62,080 nucleotides of DNA from Spirochaetaceae bacterium (GTDB lineage: Bacteria > Spirochaetota > Spirochaetia > DSM-27196 > SLAA01). Both the position numbers and the translations under genes were made by a program. The stretch spans positions 1-62,080 of the forward strand of contig PUPD01000115.1 in assembly GCA_003552985.1 (NCBI GenBank), written 5' to 3'. The notes below the pieces were generated by a model that saw only the letters and a list, made by a program, of their open reading frames with translations, did not search any database and had not been told where the DNA came from. This document shows positions 50,531 through 61,994 of the stretch, piece by piece (within the stretch, counting starts at the first letter, position 1; each line of letters starts with the position of its first letter).

Positions 50531-51463
50531 TCAGCGTCGAAACTGCAGCTCGCGCCCCTTGCGCGCCGCTTCCTCGACAGCCGCAAGGGCTGCGTTTGCC
50601 AAGTCCTGCGGCGACTGCATGCGTCGCTCATAGGCTGCCACGCCGCAGCGTAGCTCAGCATTGCAGCGGTCGAGGCAATGTTGCAGCTCGCGATCGTGGC
50701 GCAGCCGCTCTATCAGCCGCTGCACCGGGACTTCGGCCAGTGCGACGTTTGTGCGGGCAAGCAGGACCCAAACGGTGTCACGCGCGTAACGCCCGCAGCG
50801 GTCCGAGCGCCTCAAATACGGGTCGATCGCACGCTGCAACGCTTCGGCGATGGAATCGAGGTCGGTGGAGCCGGCTTTCGATTCCGGGAACGCCCGTATC
50901 ATGATCAACGCCACCGGATCGCCATAGCGGACCGCTCCGTCCCAGTAGATGTGTATCTGGTCGCTAAACTCAGGGCCGGCGATCTCTTTGACCCAATCGA
51001 CAGCGCTCAGATTCACAAGGAGGGCGAAGAAGACCGCGCGGTACGCCCAACCGTACGCGGCGGTCAAGACAATCAGAACGGTTAGCGGCATCAGCGGGGA
51101 CACCTCGGCCAACGCCGAAGCCTCCAGATACGAGGGAGCCGACGGATAGAGCGCGGCGAGTCCAAGCAAGAATGCCAGAAACACCGCCGGGAAGAACCCC
51201 GCGATCGGCAGGTTGGGACGCTGGCTCTGCATTCGGAGCTCGAGACGCAGCAGGACGCCCCCGAAACTCGCCGCAGCCGCAAGCAGCAGGAGTTGCGTCA
51301 CAAGAGCGAGACTATTGGCCTGTCCGCCGTAACGAAGGGTGAGAATTGCCCCGGCTGCAAGCACAGTGGCCGCGGCGATGATCGCCCCCGTCTTGAGAAT
51401 AACCGAGGTTTGGGTGGCCATCAGCAGCGCTTTACGTTCCCGCTGATCAATAGGCCTGGGCAT
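50531..51463 (-). CDS. Membrane protein with a C-terminal degenerate GGDEF-like domain
   Basis: About five hydrophobic segments, then the GGDEF-domain layout (RRSDRCGRY-ARDTV-WVLLARTN...AALAAVEEAARKGR), with the GGDEF motif replaced by ARDTV. Confidence 0.45.
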   Translation of the reverse strand: MPRPIDQRERKALLMATQTSVILKTGAIIAAATVLAAGAILTLRYGGQANSLALVTQLLLLAAAASFGGVLLRLELRMQSQRPNLPIAGFFPAVFLAFLLGLAALYPSAPSYLEASALAEVSPLMPLTVLIVLTAAYGWAYRAVFFALLVNLSAVDWVKEIAGPEFSDQIHIYWDGAVRYGDPVALIMIRAFPESKAGSTDLDSIAEALQRAIDPYLRRSDRCGRYARDTVWVLLARTNVALAEVPVQRLIERLRHDRELQHCLDRCNAELRCGVAAYERRMQSPQDLANAALAAVEEAARKGRELQFRR

Positions 51464-51665: not shown

Positions 51666-52547
51666 ATGCAGAACATCGGCTGGATCGGAACGGGAATCAT
51701 GGGAAAGAGTATGTGTCGTCATCTGATTGACGCCGGATACTCGGCATCAGTTTACACGCGTACCAAAGACAAAGCGGAAGAGTTGATCGCAGCGGGGGCG
51801 AGGTGGTGTGAGTCACCCAAGGGCGTAGCGGAGCGCAGCGACTGCATCTTCACGATTGTGGGGTACCCCAAGGATGTGCGCGAGGTGATCCTTGGCGACG
51901 ACGGCGTGCTCGCCGGATCCCGCCCGGGCAGCATCATTGTGGATATGACGACCTCGGAACCGGCGTTAGCGGAGGAGATCGCAGCCGCCGCGGCTCAGAA
52001 AGGGGTCGCGGCGCTCGATGCGCCGGTCTCGGGCGGCGATCTGGGAGCACGCAACGGCACCCTCGCTATCATGTGCGGCGGTGACTCCGAAACCTACGAG
52101 AAGGTGTTGCCGTTGCTGCAGTGCATGGGCGAGCGGATCTCGCTTCTCGGGGGAGCTGGGCGTGGTCAACACACCAAGATGTGCAATCAGATCCTGGTTG
52201 CCTCCGGCATCGTCGGAATGGTAGAAGCATTGCTGTACGCGCAAAAGGCCGGGCTCGATGCCGAACAGGTCATTGAGATCGTCGGCAGTGGTGCAGCCGC
52301 CTCGTGGGCTATCAACAACCTCGGCCCGCGCATCGCCCGCGGCGATTACGATCCCGGCTTCATGATCCGCCATTTTCTCAAAGATATGGGAATAGCGCTG
52401 GAGGAAGCCAAGCGCTTGAAGCTCTCGTTGCCGGGCCTCGCGCTCACGCAGGAGCTCTACACGGCTGCCGCCGCGCAGGGTCTCGAAGATCTCGGCACCC
52501 ACGGGCTGTACAAGATCCTCGCCGAGCTCAACGGGATGCGGGCCTGA
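51666..52547 (+). CDS. NAD(P)-dependent oxidoreductase, 3-hydroxyisobutyrate / 2-hydroxy-3-oxopropionate reductase family
   Basis: IGWIGTGIMGKSM Rossmann motif and the family pattern (DAPVSGG, GxGQxxKxxNQ). Confidence 0.8.
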   Translation: MQNIGWIGTGIMGKSMCRHLIDAGYSASVYTRTKDKAEELIAAGARWCESPKGVAERSDCIFTIVGYPKDVREVILGDDGVLAGSRPGSIIVDMTTSEPALAEEIAAAAAQKGVAALDAPVSGGDLGARNGTLAIMCGGDSETYEKVLPLLQCMGERISLLGGAGRGQHTKMCNQILVASGIVGMVEALLYAQKAGLDAEQVIEIVGSGAAASWAINNLGPRIARGDYDPGFMIRHFLKDMGIALEEAKRLKLSLPGLALTQELYTAAAAQGLEDLGTHGLYKILAELNGMRA

Positions 52548-52657
52548 CTGGAGCTTCGCGCTGACCGGGGCGCGGGCGAACGCGGCCGCTCTGTGCGGTG
52601 CTGTGCCGCGGGGGGTAGCGTGCCGGGGCGGAGGTGGGCCCGTGCGGTGGAGTGCCG

Positions 52658-53812
52658 TTACACGAGCGCTTCCAGCTCGCGATCAAACAGCGGGGCGAGT
52701 ACCCGGCAGTCAAATCGCGCAAAGGCGTGTTGCAGGGAAGCCGTAAGTGCGCGGCGTTCGGCGGTCGGCCGGCTGAGATGCCGCCTCAGCAACTCGTAGA
52801 GGTGCCTCTCGTCCTGATAGAGACACTCGCGGTGAAACTCGTCCGGGACGAGCTCGGGGTATGACAGTCGGTGGGGCAACACCGGCAGGCATCCGCACAG
52901 TACCGCCTCGCACACCGCTATTCCGAAGTTCTCCTGCTCCGCAGTACTGACCACGATCTCGCCGCGTTCCAGCCAGGTCTGATACTCATCGCGCGATTCA
53001 ACGTAGCCGTAATGCCGGACACGATCACCGAGCTCGGACACGGCGCGATCCATGCGACGGCGCATAGAGGTAGACCGTTCGCCTAGCAGAACTACCTCGA
53101 ACGGCAGCTGCGCGGATGCGAGTCGGTTGAGTGTGCGGAAAAAGACTCCGGGAGCCTTATCGTATTCCAGTCGGTGATTCCAGACGATGGGCGGCACCTG
53201 CTGCGAACCGTGGTTGGAACCGTGGCTGGGGACGGACGCCGAGCTCATCACGACCGGCCGCGGAGGGCGCGGTAGATTGGCGCCCGGGTAGTGAACCCCG
53301 GCGGCGGTAGCGGCCTCGTCAGCCGCTGCGAGCCGCACTGCCGCGCCGTGATCCGAAGAGTTACGGTACTCCGACAGGACGGCGTGCGCCGCCGAGACAA
53401 AGGCCGCACGGTGGGTATTGGAGTTGAACAGCGTGCGGTCGGCGGCGGCGACGTTCTTGATCTCCTGCAGGAAGAGCTCGCGCGGCGGCAGCCGATGACG
53501 GGTCGGCGGATAGGTGAGCTGACTCTCGTGCATGTACAGGAGCACCGGTGGCACCGGTCCGCGCTCGGCGAAGAGTGCGCGCAGCTCCGTGAGGTCGATG
53601 AGGTCGCTGACGATAAGCCCGTCGTACGAGCATGCGGCATCGACACGCTCGATCAGCTCCCACGCCGCGGTCTGCATGCGTTGGCGCCACTGCCGGGCGG
53701 GCAAGGTGAGCAACGTAATCTCATGCGCCGATCGGGAGACAACCGAATCGGCGAACGCGCGGTGCGAACCGCCGTAGAAGGATTCCAGGAAGAGAAAGCG
53801 AAGCCGCTTCAC
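52658..53812 (-). CDS. DUF3524 + GT1-type glycosyltransferase, homolog of eukaryotic GTDC1 (tRNA-queuosine alpha-mannosyltransferase family)
   Basis: ESFYGGSHRAF, TLPARQWRQRMQ, DLTELRAL, LLYMHESQLTYP and LFNSNTH parallel the human GTDC1 N-terminal domain as I recall it. The GTG start overlaps the preceding stop. Confidence 0.65.
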   Translation of the reverse strand: MKRLRFLFLESFYGGSHRAFADSVVSRSAHEITLLTLPARQWRQRMQTAAWELIERVDAACSYDGLIVSDLIDLTELRALFAERGPVPPVLLYMHESQLTYPPTRHRLPPRELFLQEIKNVAAADRTLFNSNTHRAAFVSAAHAVLSEYRNSSDHGAAVRLAAADEAATAAGVHYPGANLPRPPRPVVMSSASVPSHGSNHGSQQVPPIVWNHRLEYDKAPGVFFRTLNRLASAQLPFEVVLLGERSTSMRRRMDRAVSELGDRVRHYGYVESRDEYQTWLERGEIVVSTAEQENFGIAVCEAVLCGCLPVLPHRLSYPELVPDEFHRECLYQDERHLYELLRRHLSRPTAERRALTASLQHAFARFDCRVLAPLFDRELEALV

Positions 53813-54921
53813 GGCCTGCGCTCCGGAGGCAAGACCGGCATGTCGTCCAGGAAATGTGTGATAGCCTCGAAAACCTGGCGGCGCAACGGCTCCGGCTCGT
53901 TGAAGAGGTTGTGCCGGGCTCCTTCGACGGTAACGGCGTGATGAATCGGGAAACGCTCCTTCAGATACGCGCGGTTGTAGTCGTTATCGACGACGGTGTC
54001 GTTCTCGGCGAAGACCATCAGAAGCGGGACCCGGCGGGGCCGATATCCGCGGCTACGTTCTTCCCAGGCCAGGTAGGTCACGGCCCAGCTCAACGGCACG
54101 CGGTACACTCCTAACGGGTCGTGTTTCTCGCTGAACTCGATAAACTCGGGGTCGGAGCTCGCCGCTTCGAGGCGGCGCCCGACGGTTTCAAAGAGCGGAG
54201 CGCCGATGCGAATCCCTGCCTGCGCAAGCGGCCAGAGCCAGATGCGCACCAGCGGGGCGGCAAATATGAGCGCGTCATAGCTGCCGCCGCAGTGTTCAAG
54301 ATGCTCGATTAGGGCCGCAGCTCCGGTGCTGTGGCCCACGCCGACGAGTGGGAGCTCCTCGCTGCCGAGGTGTGCGGAATCCCGTTCGCGCAGCACCGTG
54401 TCCAATGCCGGGAGCGCCTCGACGAGAACTCGGTCGAGTACGCGAGCGTAGTCACGGAATTCCTCTATCTCTCCACGCGGGCCGCTTGAGAGGCCATGCC
54501 CCGGAAGATCCGGAGCGACGATCGCATACCCCTCAGTAAGCAGCGCTCGCACCGCTTCACGATTGAGGCCGGCATGATCGAGATAGCCGTGCAACAGCAC
54601 CGCCACCCCATCAGGTACCGTTTCGGGGACGAAGAGCTGAACTGCGATCCGATGGTCTGCGGTCTGCACGGTTCCGATTCGCCACACAGCGTCTTCGAAC
54701 CATAACTCATAGTGCGTGCGGTATGCTTCCGCTACAGCGCGGGCCTGAGGATCAAGGTCTTCGGTCAGCGGGGGAAGCGTGTCTCGCAATATGCGCGCGG
54801 CTGTCTCGTCAAATGGGTGTGCAGCCGCACCCGGCACCGCAGTCGCACAGGAGGCGAGCGCGAGCGCGAGGGTTGTCAGAGCGCGCGTACCGGCTCGTAC
54901 ACGATCGGAGTCGCTCATCAC
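53809..54921 (-). CDS. Exported alpha/beta-fold hydrolase (lysophospholipase/monoacylglycerol-lipase-like)
   Basis: Signal peptide (ALTTLALALASCATA), the HG oxyanion motif (LLHGYLDH) and the nucleophile elbow (GHSTG). The start overlaps the mvk stop. Confidence 0.7.
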   Translation of the reverse strand: MMSDSDRVRAGTRALTTLALALASCATAVPGAAAHPFDETAARILRDTLPPLTEDLDPQARAVAEAYRTHYELWFEDAVWRIGTVQTADHRIAVQLFVPETVPDGVAVLLHGYLDHAGLNREAVRALLTEGYAIVAPDLPGHGLSSGPRGEIEEFRDYARVLDRVLVEALPALDTVLRERDSAHLGSEELPLVGVGHSTGAAALIEHLEHCGGSYDALIFAAPLVRIWLWPLAQAGIRIGAPLFETVGRRLEAASSDPEFIEFSEKHDPLGVYRVPLSWAVTYLAWEERSRGYRPRRVPLLMVFAENDTVVDNDYNRAYLKERFPIHHAVTVEGARHNLFNEPEPLRRQVFEAITHFLDDMPVLPPERRP

Positions 54922-56132
54922 CTATCTCTCTCCGCCGGCGAGCGAGCCGGCGACGACGGAGTGTCGTTGGTGACCGCGTAAACGCCAGCGTGGCTGCTGC
55001 CGGCCGCGTTGATCTCGGCGGTGTCGAGCACGAGTAGCGGAGGGTCGGGCAAGGTCGCGCCGGGCGATGCTTCGCGAAGAAGTGCGCGGATCGCGGCGCA
55101 CGCACCCTTGGCGGCCGGGAGATTGGGAAACAACAGGAAGAACGCGCCGCCTCCGCCGGCGCCGCTGAGCTTACCGCCGGTGGCACCGTTGACCCGCCCG
55201 CATTCCAGCACGCGGTCGAGCAGTACCGTACTGAGTCCCCATCCGGCAAGCATCTCGTGCGCGCGATCGGCGTATCCGCCGAGCTCGGCGATTGTGGCGG
55301 CGCGAGTGGGCCGACCGGTGCCGGCGGTCAATGTCTCGGCAACTGCAGCGCTAAGCGTTCCGAGCCCTGCGAGCGCACCCTGCGGCTCTAGTTCTGCAGC
55401 CTCGATGCGGGCCTTCAGGCCGGCGATCAACGTGCGGGTCGAGCCTTCGCGCCGCACGGCCCCGGCTAGCAGGGCTCCCTCAGGCAGGATGATCGGCGTC
55501 TGACGGGGCAGATCGCCCTGCCCGAACTGAAACGCATGCGCGCCGCCGAGGGTCGCGAGCCCGGTATCAACGCCGGAGGGGGTGCCATGGAACTCGCGCT
55601 CCAGCTCATTTGCAACTCGCCAGCGGCGGAGCGAGGGAGCTTCCGGGAGGGCCGCCGCGGCGAGCGCGGCGCAGAGCGCAGCAGATGAGCCGAGGCCCAT
55701 ACCGCGGGGTACGCTCGAGCTGATTGACAGGGTTCCGCCGGCCGGCCCGTCGCCCTGCCGGCGGCGTGTGCCCTGCCGCTCCGCCGGCTCACGGGGCTGC
55801 AGCAGCTTGCGAGCGGCTCGGTTCCCGGACGACATTTCCTCATCGCTGAGCGTCCGGAACAGGCGCTTGAGCACCGCCTCGACTGCGGGACGATCCTCCT
55901 CGTCGATCGTGGTGCAGTCAATCTCCAGCTGTTTCCAGTCTTGCTGATTCTCGGTCCCTGGGAACACCGTCGTTGCGGTGCTGCCGGCCGGGAGGCGAAC
56001 CGTGACCGTAGTATAAAGCGGCAATGCCGTTCCGACGGCCGGGTACCCGTAGACCGCTGCGTGTTCACCGAACAACAGCAGTTTGCCCGAGGCCCGACCT
56101 ACGGCGTGCCGGGATGATGCGAACTGTCCCAC
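54918..56132 (-). CDS. mvk: Mevalonate kinase (GHMP family)
   Basis: GTG start with a strong GGAGGGAG RBS. GKLLLFGEHAAVYG is motif I and PRGMGLGSSAALCAAL is motif II. Confidence 0.8.
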   Translation of the reverse strand: MGQFASSRHAVGRASGKLLLFGEHAAVYGYPAVGTALPLYTTVTVRLPAGSTATTVFPGTENQQDWKQLEIDCTTIDEEDRPAVEAVLKRLFRTLSDEEMSSGNRAARKLLQPREPAERQGTRRRQGDGPAGGTLSISSSVPRGMGLGSSAALCAALAAAALPEAPSLRRWRVANELEREFHGTPSGVDTGLATLGGAHAFQFGQGDLPRQTPIILPEGALLAGAVRREGSTRTLIAGLKARIEAAELEPQGALAGLGTLSAAVAETLTAGTGRPTRAATIAELGGYADRAHEMLAGWGLSTVLLDRVLECGRVNGATGGKLSGAGGGGAFFLLFPNLPAAKGACAAIRALLREASPGATLPDPPLLVLDTAEINAAGSSHAGVYAVTNDTPSSPARSPAERDR

Positions 56133-57244
56133 GATACTCCCTCCGAGGCTATGCGCAACGGTTGTATCGTATCATGAGCCAGCGGTTCGAGCGCAAGCTC
56201 AGCAGGAGTATCGCTTCGGGGTACGCAGAGAGCGAGCTCGTTTCCGGCGCCGATCGCCTTACAGAGAACGGCGCTTCCGGATTCGGCCGACGCGCGGCCG
56301 GGAGGCAACTCTGTCTTGCCGGGTGCGGGGTCTCCTACGCCGGTCGCCGGTCCGCCGATGGTACGCTCGGCTTCGGCGCAGAGGGCCGGGGGCAGCGCGG
56401 CCGAAACCCCGATACGCTCGCCGAGCGCAATGCCGAGCTCGGCAAGTCGTTCCAGTATCGGCAACGCCTTCTCGCGGGAGTCGGCGGCAGCGAGCTCGCT
56501 CACCAGCGTGTTCGAGCGTTCAAGAAAGGTGCGGGCCTCGTGCGACGCGGTGTGTTTCCAACGTTTGAAGCTGCGCGCCGCGCCCGCGGTGCGGACGGCG
56601 TGGTTCGCCTTCGCCACGAGCGCCCCGCGCAGCCAACGCAGATCCAGCGGTGTCAGTGAAGGGCTCGGTCCCCCACGGAACAGTCCGCCTCCGCCTGCGG
56701 TGGAGACCAGGACGTCATAGCCGCTGCCGTGGCCGTGCTGAAACTCACGATGAATCGGCCCCGCATGTTCATGCAGTATCCGGCGAGCCTCGGCCGGGGC
56801 CAGGCCGCCGGCGTGCAGCAGCGCGGCGGTACATACGACGGTGGCCGCGGCGCTGGAGCCGAGACCCCGTTTGCTGCCGTCGTTGTGGAAGAACGCGCTG
56901 GAGTCGAGCGTGATCTCGGCATTCAGCGGGCGTTCCATGAGCTGATAGCGCTCGAGGTAGGCGACGCATGTGGCCGGAAGCCTGGTCTCGTCCGTCACCG
57001 GTTGACCGGGAACAAACACGTGCTCGGCGTCGCCCCCCATCCGGCAGCGCACGGCGTCCCAGCGGGCGGGCCGCACCTCCGCCACCGTCCGCGGGTGGGT
57101 GGCCACTGCGATCCCGAGCCCCCCGGGCTCGAGCACGGCGTACTCTCCGCACACCAGCAGATTGCCGGGAGCGCTGATCCGCGCCACACGTTCGCCGTCG
57201 TGCACCCGAGCGGAGCTTCCGTCCGCCTGCGTGCCGCTACTCAT
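56099..57244 (-). CDS. mvaK2: Phosphomevalonate kinase (GHMP family, ERG8 type)
   Basis: The start is set at MSSGTQ, an ATGA overlap with the mvaD stop. APGNLLVCGEYAVLEPG and GLGSSAAATV are present. The listed 600-aa ORF is an upstream extension through mvaD. Confidence 0.75.
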   Translation of the reverse strand: MSSGTQADGSSARVHDGERVARISAPGNLLVCGEYAVLEPGGLGIAVATHPRTVAEVRPARWDAVRCRMGGDAEHVFVPGQPVTDETRLPATCVAYLERYQLMERPLNAEITLDSSAFFHNDGSKRGLGSSAAATVVCTAALLHAGGLAPAEARRILHEHAGPIHREFQHGHGSGYDVLVSTAGGGGLFRGGPSPSLTPLDLRWLRGALVAKANHAVRTAGAARSFKRWKHTASHEARTFLERSNTLVSELAAADSREKALPILERLAELGIALGERIGVSAALPPALCAEAERTIGGPATGVGDPAPGKTELPPGRASAESGSAVLCKAIGAGNELALCVPRSDTPAELALEPLAHDTIQPLRIASEGVSWDSSHHPGTP

Positions 57245-58272
57245 CGGCTGGTGTCTCCTCTGTGGAGCTCGGCATCGGGACCGGGGCCGCAGACGGCGAA
57301 CACTTCGGCGATCTCGGACAGCTCCTCGCGCACCCGGTCGACATGCTCGGCCGTCGTCAAAACCTTCACCTGCGGGCCCGCATCCATCGTCTCGAACGCG
57401 GGCACGGCGGCACGGCGCAGCCGTTCGCAGGCGTGAATCGCTTCCACGCTGGCGGGTAACCAGTACAGAACCGGCGGCTCGGCGGTGAACATCGTCGCGA
57501 ACATGCGCAGGTAACTCAGCCGTGCAACCCTCCCGAGACGCTCGAGATCGCGCTCGGTAAGCGCACGCACCGCCTCTTCGGCGAGGGCACGGTTGTCCTG
57601 TTCCCAAGCCTCGAAGTAAGGCGATGTCTTGCGGGTGCGCTCCATCGCCTCGCGGGAGGAGACGCCTTTGGCTTGGCTCGAGATCTTCACAACGATCACG
57701 CGGAGCTCGGGCCAATGAGAAGCCGGGTAGAGCTGTTCGGCCGAGCGCGCCCCCCGGCTCCAGCGCGTAAACCCGCCGAACACCGCGCGTGCCGCTGAAC
57801 CAGACCCCACCCGCGCCATGGCCGAAAGCTCGTCTCTCGGGAGCGGCAGCGGCAGCGGCAGGGGCGAACCTAGGGCGAACCGTGCCGGTGACGCGTTGCA
57901 TGCGGCGGCGCTGCAGGCAAGCGCCAGGGCTGCGAAGCCGGAGGATGAGCTTGCCAGCCCGGCCGCGGTGGGGAAGTTGTTTTGGCTCTTCACCGCGAAC
58001 GCCACATGAGTTGCGCAGCGTTGTCTGACGGCATCGAAGAAGGGTGTGAATCGCGCTGGGTCGACCGCGTGCCCGTCGATCACGATCTCGTCCGGCCGGT
58101 TTGGTACGGCGCTCACGACGACACGGCTGGTGAGGTGGTCGAGCGTCATCGCGATGCTTGTGGTAGCGGGGAGGTTCGTGTCTCCGGGTAGTTTCCCCCA
58201 GTACTTAACCAAGGCCAGACTGGGGTGGGCGGTCGCAGTGTAGACCTGACCGGCGTTCTTAAGCGGGCTCAT
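57241..58272 (-). CDS. mvaD: Diphosphomevalonate decarboxylase
   Basis: AHPSLALVKYWGK and GLASSSSGFAAL motifs. Confidence 0.85.
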   Translation of the reverse strand: MSPLKNAGQVYTATAHPSLALVKYWGKLPGDTNLPATTSIAMTLDHLTSRVVVSAVPNRPDEIVIDGHAVDPARFTPFFDAVRQRCATHVAFAVKSQNNFPTAAGLASSSSGFAALALACSAAACNASPARFALGSPLPLPLPLPRDELSAMARVGSGSAARAVFGGFTRWSRGARSAEQLYPASHWPELRVIVVKISSQAKGVSSREAMERTRKTSPYFEAWEQDNRALAEEAVRALTERDLERLGRVARLSYLRMFATMFTAEPPVLYWLPASVEAIHACERLRRAAVPAFETMDAGPQVKVLTTAEHVDRVREELSEIAEVFAVCGPGPDAELHRGDTSR

Positions 58273-59594
58273 CGGTGTGCTCGTAGGTGTTGCGCACGTA
58301 GGTCCGACAGTATGCGCTCGGCAGCTTGAAGGTTGAAGCTGCCGCCGGCAACGAGACGCTCGGCTACAGTGTCGATCTCCGCCCCGCGCGCCCCGGCTTT
58401 GTAAGCGAGCCGGTTTGCGTGCAGGCGCATGTGGCCGGTCTGTATGCCTTCCGATACGAGGGCAAGGAGCGCGGCGAAGTTCTGTGCCAGGCCGAGCGCC
58501 GCGGCAATTCCGGCCAGCCGAACGGCCTCGGGGTCGCCGAGCAGCCGGAGCATACTGCGAGCCACCGGGTGGAAGCTCGAGGCGCCGCCGACGGTGCCGA
58601 ATGCAGCAGGGAGCGCGAGCTCGGCGCTGAGCTCGTCATTCTCGATGCGGTAGGTAGTCAGCGCCCGGTAGCGGCCTTCGCGCGTTGCGTAAGCGTGCGC
58701 AGCGGCCTCGATTGCGCGCGTGTCGTTGGCGGTGGCGAGCGCGAGCGCGCTGATCCCGTTCATGATCCCCTTGTTATGGGTGACCGCGCGTTCCGGATCG
58801 GCGGACGCGATTGCGTTGGCCAGGACGATGCGGTCGGCCAGCTCGCGACCTGCCAGTGTCCCGCGGCGCAGCTGGGACAGCGGCAACCGAAACGTGGCCG
58901 CAGCGGTTCGCTCGCGGGCGGCATTGGTTATGATCGCCATCACGGTGGAGCCGCCGGAGGCCTTGGCAAGAATCGGCGCGGCACGCTCGGCGGCGCTGTT
59001 GACCACGTTGGCTCCCATCGCATCGCGTACGTCGATCACGAGCTCGACGCAGACGACTTCGCCGCGCGCCGGCAACTCTCCGTCGCAGCGGCGCACCCGC
59101 AGCTTCCGAAAACCACCGCCGCGCGCCTGCATCGACGCTAGCAGGGGCGCGAGGGCGCTCGCGACATCGTCCTCAGCAGCTTCGAGTGCGGCTATCCGCT
59201 CGGCGGCGACGCCCTCGAGAAAGACTTGTGCGCTCATCAATGGTTCGCTTGCCCAGGTCGTGAAGCCGCCTCCCCGCGCGACGATTGAGGCCGCAAACCC
59301 GGCGGCGGCGATCACCGACGGCTCCTCAGTCGCCATCGGGATGTCGTAGGAAACCCCGTCGATCAGAAACCCACCGGCTATCCCGAGGGGAACCGGCATG
59401 AAGCCGACCGCGCTCTCCACCATCACATCGGCTAAATCGAGCATCTCGCCTGCTCCGCTGAGAGCGCTGCGCTCCTCTTCATCGAGCTTGAGAGTCTCCG
59501 CCAACGCGCTGTTGCGCTCTCGTACTGATTGCTTTCGGAAGGCTCGGGGAAGCCGCGACACGGTTACGCTCCGCCGAATTCGCCCGTGTCCCAC
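58269..59594 (-). CDS. mvaA: Hydroxymethylglutaryl-CoA reductase, class II
   Basis: PVPLGIAGGFLIDGVSYDIPMATEEPSVIAA, DAMGANVVN and the C-terminal HMRLHA pattern of class II HMGR. The exact start is uncertain; as listed it overlaps fni by 31 nt. Confidence 0.85.
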   Translation of the reverse strand: MGHGRIRRSVTVSRLPRAFRKQSVRERNSALAETLKLDEEERSALSGAGEMLDLADVMVESAVGFMPVPLGIAGGFLIDGVSYDIPMATEEPSVIAAAGFAASIVARGGGFTTWASEPLMSAQVFLEGVAAERIAALEAAEDDVASALAPLLASMQARGGGFRKLRVRRCDGELPARGEVVCVELVIDVRDAMGANVVNSAAERAAPILAKASGGSTVMAIITNAARERTAAATFRLPLSQLRRGTLAGRELADRIVLANAIASADPERAVTHNKGIMNGISALALATANDTRAIEAAAHAYATREGRYRALTTYRIENDELSAELALPAAFGTVGGASSFHPVARSMLRLLGDPEAVRLAGIAAALGLAQNFAALLALVSEGIQTGHMRLHANRLAYKAGARGAEIDTVAERLVAGGSFNLQAAERILSDLRAQHLRAHR

Positions 59595-60733
59595 TCGAGC
59601 GCGGTGAGCAGGGCGTATACCGCCTCTTGAAACGCAGCTGAGCGCTGCAGGCGAACGCTGCGCAACTCGGCCAACGACCGCGAGCCGGTAAGCATCATGA
59701 CGGTGCGGAGCACCTTCTCGTAGCGTGCGATCAGCTCAATCGCCTTCTCGGCGCCACCTTCGTCGATCGCTCGGATCAGCGGAAGCGCGTACCCGCCCGC
59801 ATGCGCCCCAAGGGCCAGGGACTTCGCCAGATCGAGCCCGGTGCGCAGACCGCCGGAGGCAAGAATGCGCCCCTCGGCCTGGGGAAGCCGCCCGACCGCC
59901 GCCAGAAGCACGCCGGTGCGGTAGCCCCAGTCGGCAAACTCCTCGGCGGCGGCACGTTCCTCAGCCTCGGCGCGGTAGGCTTCCACCTGCACCCAGTTGG
60001 TTCCACCGCTGCCGGCGAGGTCGAGATACGTCGCCCCGGCATCCAGCAGGCTGCGGACCAGGCGCGGGTCCACTCCGAAGCCGGTTTCCTTAATGATGAC
60101 CGGGATAGGACAGTGGCTCACAAAGCGCAGGATCGCCCCGAGCACGCCGCGGAAGTCACGATCCCCGTCGCTCTGAAACAGCTCCTGGCCGGGATTGAGA
60201 TGCACTGCTATCCCTTCGACCTCCAGCCGTCTGAGTACCTCGAAGATCTCGGCGTGATTCATGTCCCGGAGCTGCACGCTGCCGATATTGGCGAACACCG
60301 GTACGTCGGGGGCAATCTTCTTCAGCGCGAAGTGATCGAACACCTCGGGTTTGCGGAACAGTATGCGGATAGAGCCCATCCCTACCGGCACACCGGCAGC
60401 CTGCGCCGCGCGCGCGAGCTCCTTGTTGGCGCGGTAGCCGGCCTCGGAGCCGCCGGTCATCGAGGAGATAAACAGCGGCAGCCGGACCGGGCGTCCGAGG
60501 AACGTGGTGCTTGTGTCTATCTCGTGGTCGGCGATCTCCGGCAGTGCCCGGTGCAGGAACGAGACGCCCTCAAGGCCGGTGCTCCCGGTCTCCACCCGGT
60601 ACCGGTCACGGTGGAGACAGATCTCGAGATGCTGAGTCTTGCGCGTGCCGAGCCCCCCTGCCTCATGGTCCGTAAGTGGTTGGTTGCCAGGCGGGGAACT
60701 GTCCTCGATTCCTCTATTTGAAGCTGTATTCAC
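59564..60733 (-). CDS. fni: Isopentenyl-diphosphate delta-isomerase, type 2 (FMN-dependent)
   Basis: RKTQHLEICL, SSMTGG, GSGGTNW and ASGGLRTG motifs. Confidence 0.85.
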   Translation of the reverse strand: MNTASNRGIEDSSPPGNQPLTDHEAGGLGTRKTQHLEICLHRDRYRVETGSTGLEGVSFLHRALPEIADHEIDTSTTFLGRPVRLPLFISSMTGGSEAGYRANKELARAAQAAGVPVGMGSIRILFRKPEVFDHFALKKIAPDVPVFANIGSVQLRDMNHAEIFEVLRRLEVEGIAVHLNPGQELFQSDGDRDFRGVLGAILRFVSHCPIPVIIKETGFGVDPRLVRSLLDAGATYLDLAGSGGTNWVQVEAYRAEAEERAAAEEFADWGYRTGVLLAAVGRLPQAEGRILASGGLRTGLDLAKSLALGAHAGGYALPLIRAIDEGGAEKAIELIARYEKVLRTVMMLTGSRSLAELRSVRLQRSAAFQEAVYALLTALEWDTGEFGGA

Positions 60734-61994
60734 GATAGCCGTCGTCCCGAATGCCGGCCAGGTAAAACGAACCGCTGGGAATCCCGGTTACCTCTTCGGC
60801 GATCATTCGATTATATGCTTCCGGCTCCGCCGGTGCTTCGATCCAGCGCTCGTACGTATCGAACGAAACCTCGCAGTTTCCCTCCCGGACTATATCGAGA
60901 TCCCAACCGGCGATGATCCCGGGCGCTTGATCGGCCACGCGGCCCCGCATCACCGACATTGTGTTGCCGGACCCGTAGGAAGCGAGCAGAATACGTTTGC
61001 CGACGATGTCGTCGCCGAGGGTGTCATAGCGGTCCTTGAGGTAGTAGGCAAGCGAGAGGTAGGCCGCGCCGGAATAGATGTTTCCGATCCGCGCTGCAGG
61101 CTCGGTTGCGGCCTGAAACCCGCGCGCGCTCAGAAATGCCTCGATCTTCTCCGGCGGCAGGTGCAGGTGCTCACTCAGCAGGCGGTGGATCGCGATCCAC
61201 GCCATTCTCTGGAACGGGATGTGGAGCACGAACATATCGGTGTTCTCGAGCGCCTCGCGCGGCTCTTCACCGGTACGTTGACAATGGTCGCGAAACGCGG
61301 CGTCGAGCGATTCATGATAACACTGGACCGAGTATCCGCCCTTGACCTTGGCGGTCACCGAGCCGAGGGGTCGGAAAAAGTCGTCGACGTCACGCGAGCA
61401 GTAGCCCTGGGTGGATATATCCAGCTCGACCAGGCGCGGGTTGGTTTCGACCAGTATCGCGACCGAACCGGCTCCCTGCGTGATCTCGGCGGTGGTGGCG
61501 GTTTCGTAACGGGCGATGTCGGAGCAGATAACCATTCCGGTCTCGTCGGTTCGGCCCGCCGCCTGCAGCAACGCGCCGACGCTCATCATCGAGATTGTCC
61601 CGCCGGCGCAGGCGTGCTGCACCTGGAAGGTGGAGATGGAGTCCGGCACCGGATGGCCGGCGTTTTGCAACATCCCCTCGACGTAGGCCGCCACCGGCTT
61701 GGAGAGATCCACACTGGTTTCAGTGCCGACCGCGATGTACCTGAGTTTCGAGAGATCAAGCCGCGGGTTTTGTCTGAGGAGCCGATCACCGGCCTGCGCC
61801 GCAAGGGTAGCGTTGTCCTCCCAAGGATATGGGTAACGCATCGACTTCTGGCCCGTGGATTCGACGGCACGGCGCAGGCGGCGCTCCATTTTTGCATCGC
61901 CGTTCACACGGTAGCCCACGAGTGTCTCGAGGTCCATGCACGGCTGCGGGATATAGACCGCTAAATCTCCGATTCCCACTGCGGAGGTTGTCAT
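60714..61994 (-). CDS. mvaS: Hydroxymethylglutaryl-CoA synthase
   Basis: N-terminus VGIGDLAVYIP, and the catalytic Cys region (VQHACAGGT) of the thiolase-fold HMGS family. Confidence 0.85.
   Translation of the reverse strand: MTTSAVGIGDLAVYIPQPCMDLETLVGYRVNGDAKMERRLRRAVESTGQKSMRYPYPWEDNATLAAQAGDRLLRQNPRLDLSKLRYIAVGTETSVDLSKPVAAYVEGMLQNAGHPVPDSISTFQVQHACAGGTISMMSVGALLQAAGRTDETGMVICSDIARYETATTAEITQGAGSVAILVETNPRLVELDISTQGYCSRDVDDFFRPLGSVTAKVKGGYSVQCYHESLDAAFRDHCQRTGEEPREALENTDMFVLHIPFQRMAWIAIHRLLSEHLHLPPEKIEAFLSARGFQAATEPAARIGNIYSGAAYLSLAYYLKDRYDTLGDDIVGKRILLASYGSGNTMSVMRGRVADQAPGIIAGWDLDIVREGNCEVSFDTYERWIEAPAEPEAYNRMIAEEVTGIPSGSFYLAGIRDDGYREYSFK

Follow-up and report, generated by a model that had tools for sequence, protein, structure and literature searches.

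What does a bacterial relative of the vertebrate queuosine-mannosylating enzyme act upon when its gene stands at the end of a mevalonate operon? The question is raised by a 62,080-nucleotide stretch of DNA from Spirochaetaceae bacterium (GCA_003552985.1, contig PUPD01000115.1, positions 1 to 62,080), called the window throughout. Positions 52658..53812 of its minus strand encode a 384-residue glycosyltransferase (GT) of the QTMAN family (DUF3524 + GT1), recognised from its open reading frame (ORF), Pfam matches and an AlphaFold2 (AF2) model. With a probability of about 0.5, the GT is a cytosolic glycosyltransferase of queuosine-34, or of epoxyqueuosine-34, in tRNA. The broader proposition, that many bacteria and a few archaea with acquired bacterial queuosine genes sugar-modify queuosine (Q) or epoxyqueuosine (oQ) at tRNA position 34 through QTMAN-family enzymes, is given an even chance. 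Glycosyl-queuosine is, to our knowledge, treated in the literature as confined to animals, and the founding work on vertebrate QTMAN (GTDC1) is reportedly that of Zhao et al. (2023, Cell).

The glycosyltransferase and its family

The GT consists of two domains. The N-terminal domain, residues 5-157 (53342..53800, minus strand), matches QTMAN_N (PF12038, formerly DUF3524) across profile positions 1-153 of 168, with an E-value of 4.5e-40 and a score of 137.7 bits (cut-off 25); this half is presumed to bind the acceptor. The genome profile search recovers the same stretch and gives a match in 0 of 14 control genomes, and E. coli, which makes Q, lacks the family. The C-terminal domain, residues 212-349 (52766..53179, minus strand), is a GT1-type (GT4-like) nucleotide-sugar domain, matched by Glyco_trans_1_4 (PF13692, 1.1e-09) and Glycos_transf_1 (PF00534, 1.3e-08) and carrying the invariant motifs. 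NCBIfam provides no equivalog for the GT, merely weak C-domain matches to assorted GT4 enzymes. As profile matches go, the QTMAN_N and GT1 pairing is far beyond chance, and it bears out the initial annotation, which described a DUF3524 + GT1 homologue of QTMAN/GTDC1; the six window motifs quoted there (ESFYGGSHRAF, TLPARQWRQRMQ, DLTELRAL, LLYMHESQLTYP, LFNSNTH and FGIAVCEAVLCGCLPVLP) are all found in the GT translation. The homology to eukaryotic QTMAN is read from the Pfam family model.

The gene starts with a GTG codon that overlaps the stop codon (TGA) of the preceding gene by 4 nucleotides (nt) in the shared string GTGA, a GGAG is located 9 nt 5' of the start codon, and the encoded N-terminus lines up with the N-termini of family members in the alignment. 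The GC content of the gene is 0.64, compared with 0.59-0.70 nearby, and the composition gives no sign of recent transfer. No membrane segment is seen in the protein: the Kyte-Doolittle maximum over 19 residues is 1.67 and is located within the Rossmann core. The isoelectric point (pI) is 7.06 against a family median of 6.6; net charge and pI were also tried as a gauge of RNA binding and set aside, the values giving no signal.

Judged by its sequence, the GT is a real, intact member of a prokaryotic QTMAN/DUF3524 family that is already catalogued, and it is nothing new in kind. A word-indexed search in which 8000 candidates were scored returned 930 relatives at E <= 1e-5, and PF12038 is present in all of the best 120 of these 930. 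Those of them with a name go by 'DUF3524 domain-containing' or 'tRNA-queuosine alpha-mannosyltransferase domain-containing protein'. Scanning one genome per species gives at least 592 confirmed loci, chiefly in Desulfobacterales and Spirochaetota, with others in Planctomycetota, Chlorobiales, Victivallales and two archaeal metagenome-assembled genomes (MAGs). Clusters of the ESM Atlas add Fidelibacterota, Bacteroidota, Actinomycetota and Pseudomonadota, and QTMAN_N occurs in all 30 of the nearest clusters. Within Spirochaetota the domain is sporadic, being present in 9 of 301 genomes at least 90% complete. The nearest species-level relative (locus L003) is 57% identical to the GT, and Desulfobacterales and other spirochaete members are 36-46% identical.

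The AF2 model, built from a 25-sequence alignment, has a mean predicted local distance difference test score (pLDDT) of 88.4 and a predicted template-modelling score of 0.87. A linker insert of low complexity (residues ~160-205) is poorly modelled, and within it residues 193-202 are the sole part of the protein with pLDDT <50. The best Foldseek matches in the PDB (6tvp, 6kih, 3fro, 8rz3, 2gej and 3c4q) have E-values of 3e-11 to 1e-8, a probability of 1.00 and template-modelling (TM) scores of 0.58-0.70. The structural matches belong to GT4/GT5-type GT-B enzymes with a retaining mechanism, namely GlgM, sucrose-phosphate synthase, glycogen synthase, SenB, HepE, MshA, TreT, PimA and BshA, with a sequence identity of at most 17%. 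The model thus predicts a retaining GT-B fold made of two Rossmann-like domains. A sequence search of the PDB gives one weak GT1 match (5i45, E 3.9e-4) and no solved QTMAN structure.

In the 25-sequence family alignment, 58 columns are invariant, the GT included. The GT was further compared with 65 family members outside its clade, among which 113 columns are at least 90% conserved. It keeps the N-domain core (E10, GGSH 14-17, W42, R45, Y93, HExQ 95-98 and FNS 129-131) and the C-domain core (WNHR 211-214, D218-K219, QENFG 293-297 and E302), and departs from the family consensus at W215L, W44Q, R47Q and the 110-116 loop. In a preprint (bioRxiv 10.64898/2026.06.28.735034), human K296 is named as catalytic; the invariant K219 is a candidate for its counterpart.

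Queuosine genes and RNA-modification partners

The source genome is a 91.5%-complete draft in 305 contigs, and the queuosine genes that the initial annotation proposed to look for are partly present in it. They comprise tRNA-guanine transglycosylase (TGT; 6.0e-146, C15:63083-64159) and QueA (3.3e-121, C292:17935-18948), accompanied by a Vut_1/YhhQ transporter (C181:16981-17466). QueC and QueF were not found in the draft. Because a YhhQ-type transporter, TGT and QueA occur with no QueC or QueF found, the organism looks like a queuosine-precursor salvager. QueG and QueH were not found in the same draft either, so that, on gene content, its tRNA-34 product would be either oQ or Q, the latter with a reductase lying in an assembly gap; an assembly gap is most simply the explanation of the missing QueG/QueH. 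A ManC-like guanylyltransferase gene is present, and by this gene alone GDP-mannose synthesis could be possible in the host.

The same genes accompany the family elsewhere. TGT is present in 32/32 of the carrier genomes tested and QueA in 30/32, which is a necessary condition only for action on Q. QueG is above cut-off in 11 of the 32, the four nearest relatives (G301-G304) included; the idea that the GT replaces or bypasses the epoxyqueuosine reductase was rejected on this count.

Two associations point towards RNA. Neighbourhoods were counted for 80 loci plus the window, with six neighbours on each side clustered; 77 loci were retained, and L018, L021, L048 and L071, where no GT ORF is called, were left out. 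In five spirochaete loci an orphan NOL1/NOP2/Sun RNA 5-methylcytosine (m5C) methyltransferase lies directly 3' of the GT on the same strand (L068:11104-11883, L072:11094-11903, L081:11125-11994, L039:1254-2015 and L082:5526-6350). These methyltransferases have 259-289 residues and fall below every NCBIfam equivalog cut-off. The second association is a protein of 719 residues (P0122) in which QTMAN_N and GT1 (residues 11-330) are joined to a SpoU RNA 2'-O-methylase (560-700). It is the one such protein found in a search among longer proteins, and may be either genuine or an artefact of gene calling.

The archaeal carriers provide a further contrast. Both MAGs, G319 and G320, have a QTMAN-family gene (loci L027 and L050 between them), and the contig of L050 (G320:C23) also bears the archaeal primase large subunit PriL. 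Each has an arcTGT-level match plus a high-scoring bacterial-type TGT on a plainly archaeal contig (L085, G320:C17:2175-4183; L086, G319:C29:6039-7940). In one of them a queA-tgt pair is located near KaiC, a GPN-loop GTPase and SRP54; in the other, tgt is divergent from a YhhQ/Vut_1 transporter, near archaellin, proteasome alpha, SBDS and exosome genes. For comparison, four other genomes of the same group, for which sampling around G320 yields only five genomes at class and at phylum level alike, lack the GT; they have no QueA and only arcTGT-level matches. Bacterial queuosine genes are rare in archaea, being found in 34 archaeal genomes in a published survey (PMC8204110). The gene content of the two MAGs suggests an archaeal lineage with queuosine, perhaps with glycosyl-queuosine, and the queuosine reading of the family gains modest support.

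In the proposed mechanism, the host would salvage a queuosine precursor with its YhhQ-type transporter, TGT and QueA. The GT, as a soluble, cytosolic, retaining GT-B enzyme, would transfer a hexose from a nucleotide sugar to the cyclopentene-diol of Q or oQ at position 34 of tRNAs with a GUN anticodon, forming the bacterial counterpart of vertebrate mannosyl-queuosine. The QTMAN_N domain would hold the acceptor; in the C-terminal domain, the R214/K219 pair and the E294...E302 motif would make the contacts to the nucleotide sugar. By analogy only, the donor may be GDP-mannose. The position behind the mevalonate genes would bring co-transcription in this genome and no shared chemistry.

Mevalonate genes at the locus

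A run of eight co-directional genes on the minus strand ends with the GT. It opens with 3-hydroxy-3-methylglutaryl-CoA (HMG-CoA) synthase (60714..61994; Pfam HMG_CoA_synt_N/C), followed by an FMN-dependent protein resembling type-2 isopentenyl diphosphate isomerase (59564..60733; FMN_dh, 2.3e-18), which from its operon position and prior knowledge we take to be IDI2. HMG-CoA reductase (58269..59594; PF00368, 4.8e-88) and diphosphomevalonate decarboxylase (57241..58272; MVD-like_N, 5.7e-42, and MDD_C) come next. A phosphomevalonate kinase-like GHMP kinase (56099..57301; GHMP_kinases_N) follows; its ORF is listed as 600 residues (56099-57901), overlapping the decarboxylase gene by ~660 nt, and its long N-terminal part is probably not real protein but a reading frame drawn too far out in GC-rich DNA. 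Mevalonate kinase (MVK; 54918..56132; GHMP_kinases_N/C and operon position) is separated from the GT by an alpha/beta hydrolase (53809..54921; Hydrolase_4, PF12146, 2.7e-29) with an N-terminal lipobox-like signal, which overlaps both the MVK stop and the GT start by 4 nt each. The GT had been annotated as the terminal, overlapping gene of the mevalonate operon; its terminal position stands, but the gene that it overlaps encodes the hydrolase and not a mevalonate enzyme. Scanning 52300-55200 reveals no promoter-like site, and the terminator-like matches in this interval all lie within coding sequence, in about the number expected from shuffled sequence.

The hydrolase is probably exported, to judge from its lipoprotein-type signal, and would then not share the cytoplasm with the GT. 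An orthologue between MVK and GT is found in the window and L003 only. Against the NCBIfam model of the BipL phospholipase it reaches 2.1e-53 and 181.6 bits, far under the cut-off of 450, and is thus a weak likeness to the leptospiral protein.

Mevalonate genes lie upstream of the GT in 6 of the 77 loci: the window, L003, L009, L069, L077 and L044. All six fall in one 12-row tree group, mostly of spirochaetes, on a tree that carries a long-branch-join warning. Their junctions vary. The order MVK, hydrolase, GT with overlaps is shared by the window and L003; in L009 MVK is followed by the GT, and in L069 a 263-residue ORF of unknown kind intervenes. In L077 and L044, class II aldolase genes (plus a short-chain dehydrogenase/reductase gene in L044) lie between MVK and GT on the opposite strand, so the GT cannot be part of a mevalonate transcript there. 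The distance between GT and HMG-CoA reductase is ~1.0 and ~1.7 Mb in two closed genomes of the same order and 0.44 Mb in the closed genome of L045. HMG-CoA reductase itself is above cut-off in 18 of the 32 carrier genomes and missing in 14, closed Desulfobacterales genomes among them. Since the linkage is confined to 6/77 loci with varying junctions, the genes are distant in closed genomes and carriers without HMG-CoA reductase exist, the linkage is the inherited gene order of one spirochaete lineage, not a trait of the family. The suggestion that the mevalonate placement is informative on the acceptor accordingly fails.

The remaining neighbourhood is variable. The commonest neighbour family, histidine kinases, occurs in 19/77 loci at scattered positions; a second GT4 gene lies downstream of the GT in four loci, a phosphohexomutase gene lies upstream on the opposite strand in six spirochaete loci, and the other neighbours are housekeeping genes. 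No embedding of the family in lipopolysaccharide or cell-wall clusters, an arrangement that would have told against the initial annotation, is seen in the 77 loci. Downstream of the GT in the window, a convergent 3-hydroxyisobutyrate-dehydrogenase-like gene (51666..52547, plus strand; NAD_binding_2 and NAD_binding_11; cluster c8) lies outside the unit and is a kept neighbour in all six mevalonate-linked loci. Beyond it, 50531-51463 (minus strand) encodes a 310-residue protein in which several segments are hydrophobic and the C-terminus weakly resembles GGDEF (3e-06 over part of the profile); it is conserved beside the GT locus in L003 and L077.

Alternative acceptors and known systems

Several points weigh against Q34 or oQ34 as the acceptor. 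No experiment on any bacterial family member was found in the literature searched, and we know of no report of glycosylated Q from bacteria. Neither QueG nor QueH was found in the source genome. QueA occurs in 298/301 Spirochaetota genomes, so its co-occurrence with the GT inside the phylum is uninformative, and in none of the 77 loci does a que gene adjoin the GT. GluQRS (YadB), the known bacterial decorator of the Q34 diol in tRNA-Asp, is above cut-off in 0/32 carriers, the nearest being a 365-residue frame in G318 (266.5 bits versus 276.7); the diol is therefore unclaimed by the known bacterial modifier, which speaks for Q34 to a degree that depends on the background rate of GluQRS in these phyla. 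The SpoU fusion is known from one sequence, whose contig is 3164 bases long. The archaeal contrast is small and of modest weight (two carriers versus four comparators), the TGT of G320 reads as two pieces, and QueA was not found in the second archaeal carrier. The pI of the GT is not suggestive of a nucleic-acid binder. The mevalonate-linked clade, finally, has long branches on the family tree and is altered in N-domain stretches 40-53 (a basic-aromatic helix), 110-116 and 149-167; as the alignment has it, its acceptor surface may be changed or relaxed, and for this reason a small probability is kept that this lineage uses a lipid or some other acceptor.

The main rival to a tRNA acceptor, itself unlikely, is a soluble small molecule, either a free 7-deazaguanine or queuine-type base or nucleoside from salvage, or an unrelated alcohol of the cytosol, for instance a compatible solute or a thiol precursor. 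It draws on the near-neutral pI, on the host being a precursor salvager, on the many carriers that apparently come from saline or marine sediments, and on the nearest solved folds, which are nearly all small-molecule GT4 enzymes (sucrose-phosphate synthase, GlgM, TreT, MshA, BshA, SenB and a tetrahydrobiopterin glucosyltransferase). These fold matches, however, do not exceed 17% identity and reflect the common GT-B scaffold. The N-domain is QTMAN_N in particular, which in a known tRNA enzyme forms the acceptor half. Both the neighbouring RNA methyltransferases and the SpoU fusion point to RNA instead, and the archaeal carriers have TGT, the enzyme of tRNA insertion.

Recruitment of the GT to isoprenoids in this lineage, where it would glycosylate a polyprenyl phosphate, a carotenoid or another mevalonate-derived lipid, possibly together with the lipoprotein hydrolase, is improbable. 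The translational coupling to hydrolase and MVK in the window and L003, the placement after MVK in L009 and L069 as well, the long branches and altered N-domain surface of the clade and the presence of PimA, a lipid mannosyltransferase, among the fold matches would suit it. It is opposed by the restriction of the linkage to 6/77 loci of one lineage, its interruption by opposite-strand genes in two of the six, the 0.44 to 1.7 Mb between GT and HMG-CoA reductase in closed genomes and the 14 carriers that lack the reductase. The GT also keeps all core family residues and has no evident membrane or amphipathic anchor, with no hydrophobic stretch outside the Rossmann core, though it might still bind a membrane peripherally through an amphipathic helix, and the hydrolase, probably extracytoplasmic, holds its position in the window and L003 only. 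The initial annotation had left the choice between a queuosine or other nucleoside and a polyprenyl phosphate or lipid; queuosine is now the better supported of the two. Modification of a 7-deazaguanine base in DNA is very improbable. The source genome has a single TGT-family gene and no DpdA-type paralogue was found in it. A tblastn search of 50,697 phage records gives five records, in each of which only the C-domain is matched, and weakly (26-29% identity, 32% coverage); the single phage gene inspected encodes a glycosyltransferase without a Pfam match at E 0.001. In the jumbo phage PhiXhv-15 of Xanthomonas (L087:4288-8374), GlmS, a PIG-L-type deacetylase, a Pfam-less glycosyltransferase and a GFO/IDH/MocA-type oxidoreductase form a string, which is probably an amino-sugar modification module unrelated to the GT.

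If Q34 or oQ34 is the acceptor, a hypermodification of tRNA that is regarded as peculiar to animals would prove prokaryotic in origin, and Q glycosylation would be common among sulfate reducers, spirochaetes, planctomycetes and further groups. Cultured carriers exist, Desulfosarcina alkanivorans PL12 and Desulfatibacillum alkenivorans DSM 16219 among them, which makes bacterial Q glycosylation accessible to tRNA mass spectrometry. The GT of the window adds little beyond one more example, its sole distinctive feature, the mevalonate-operon position, being a lineage-specific gene order. The archaeal carriers with bacterial-type TGT, the m5C methyltransferase partner and the SpoU fusion may be more useful than the GT itself. 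In line with the initial annotation, which considered the role of bacterial DUF3524 proteins undescribed, no paper on them was found among those listed in the literature searched, and the listed work on glycosylated queuosines is eukaryote-centred.

The closest known system is vertebrate QTMAN (GTDC1), a tRNA-queuosine alpha-mannosyltransferase as described in two sources that cite the founding work (PMC11755703; bioRxiv 10.64898/2026.06.28.735034). Like it, the GT has QTMAN_N followed by a GT1-type C-domain, its predicted retaining GT-B fold would fit an alpha-glycosidic product, and its host has the Q-inserting enzyme TGT. Unlike it, the GT is bacterial with a predicted function only, helix 40-53 is diverged in its clade, and the host, in which QueG/QueH were not found, may carry oQ instead of Q. 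Within the prokaryotic DUF3524 family, a name used by NCBI and in the ESM Atlas clusters, the GT is a full member that differs from the rest only in its position at the tail of the mevalonate operon and in the linker insert at ~160-205. GluQRS, an aminoacyl-tRNA-synthetase paralogue that adds glutamate, would by analogy use the same chemical handle and the same kind of tRNA as the GT, but its fold and chemistry are unrelated and the analogy is functional only. PimA, MshA, BshA, sucrose-phosphate synthase and SenB have the fold and the C-domain motifs in common with the GT at <=17% identity, but have N-domains of another kind than QTMAN_N and act on lipids or small molecules.

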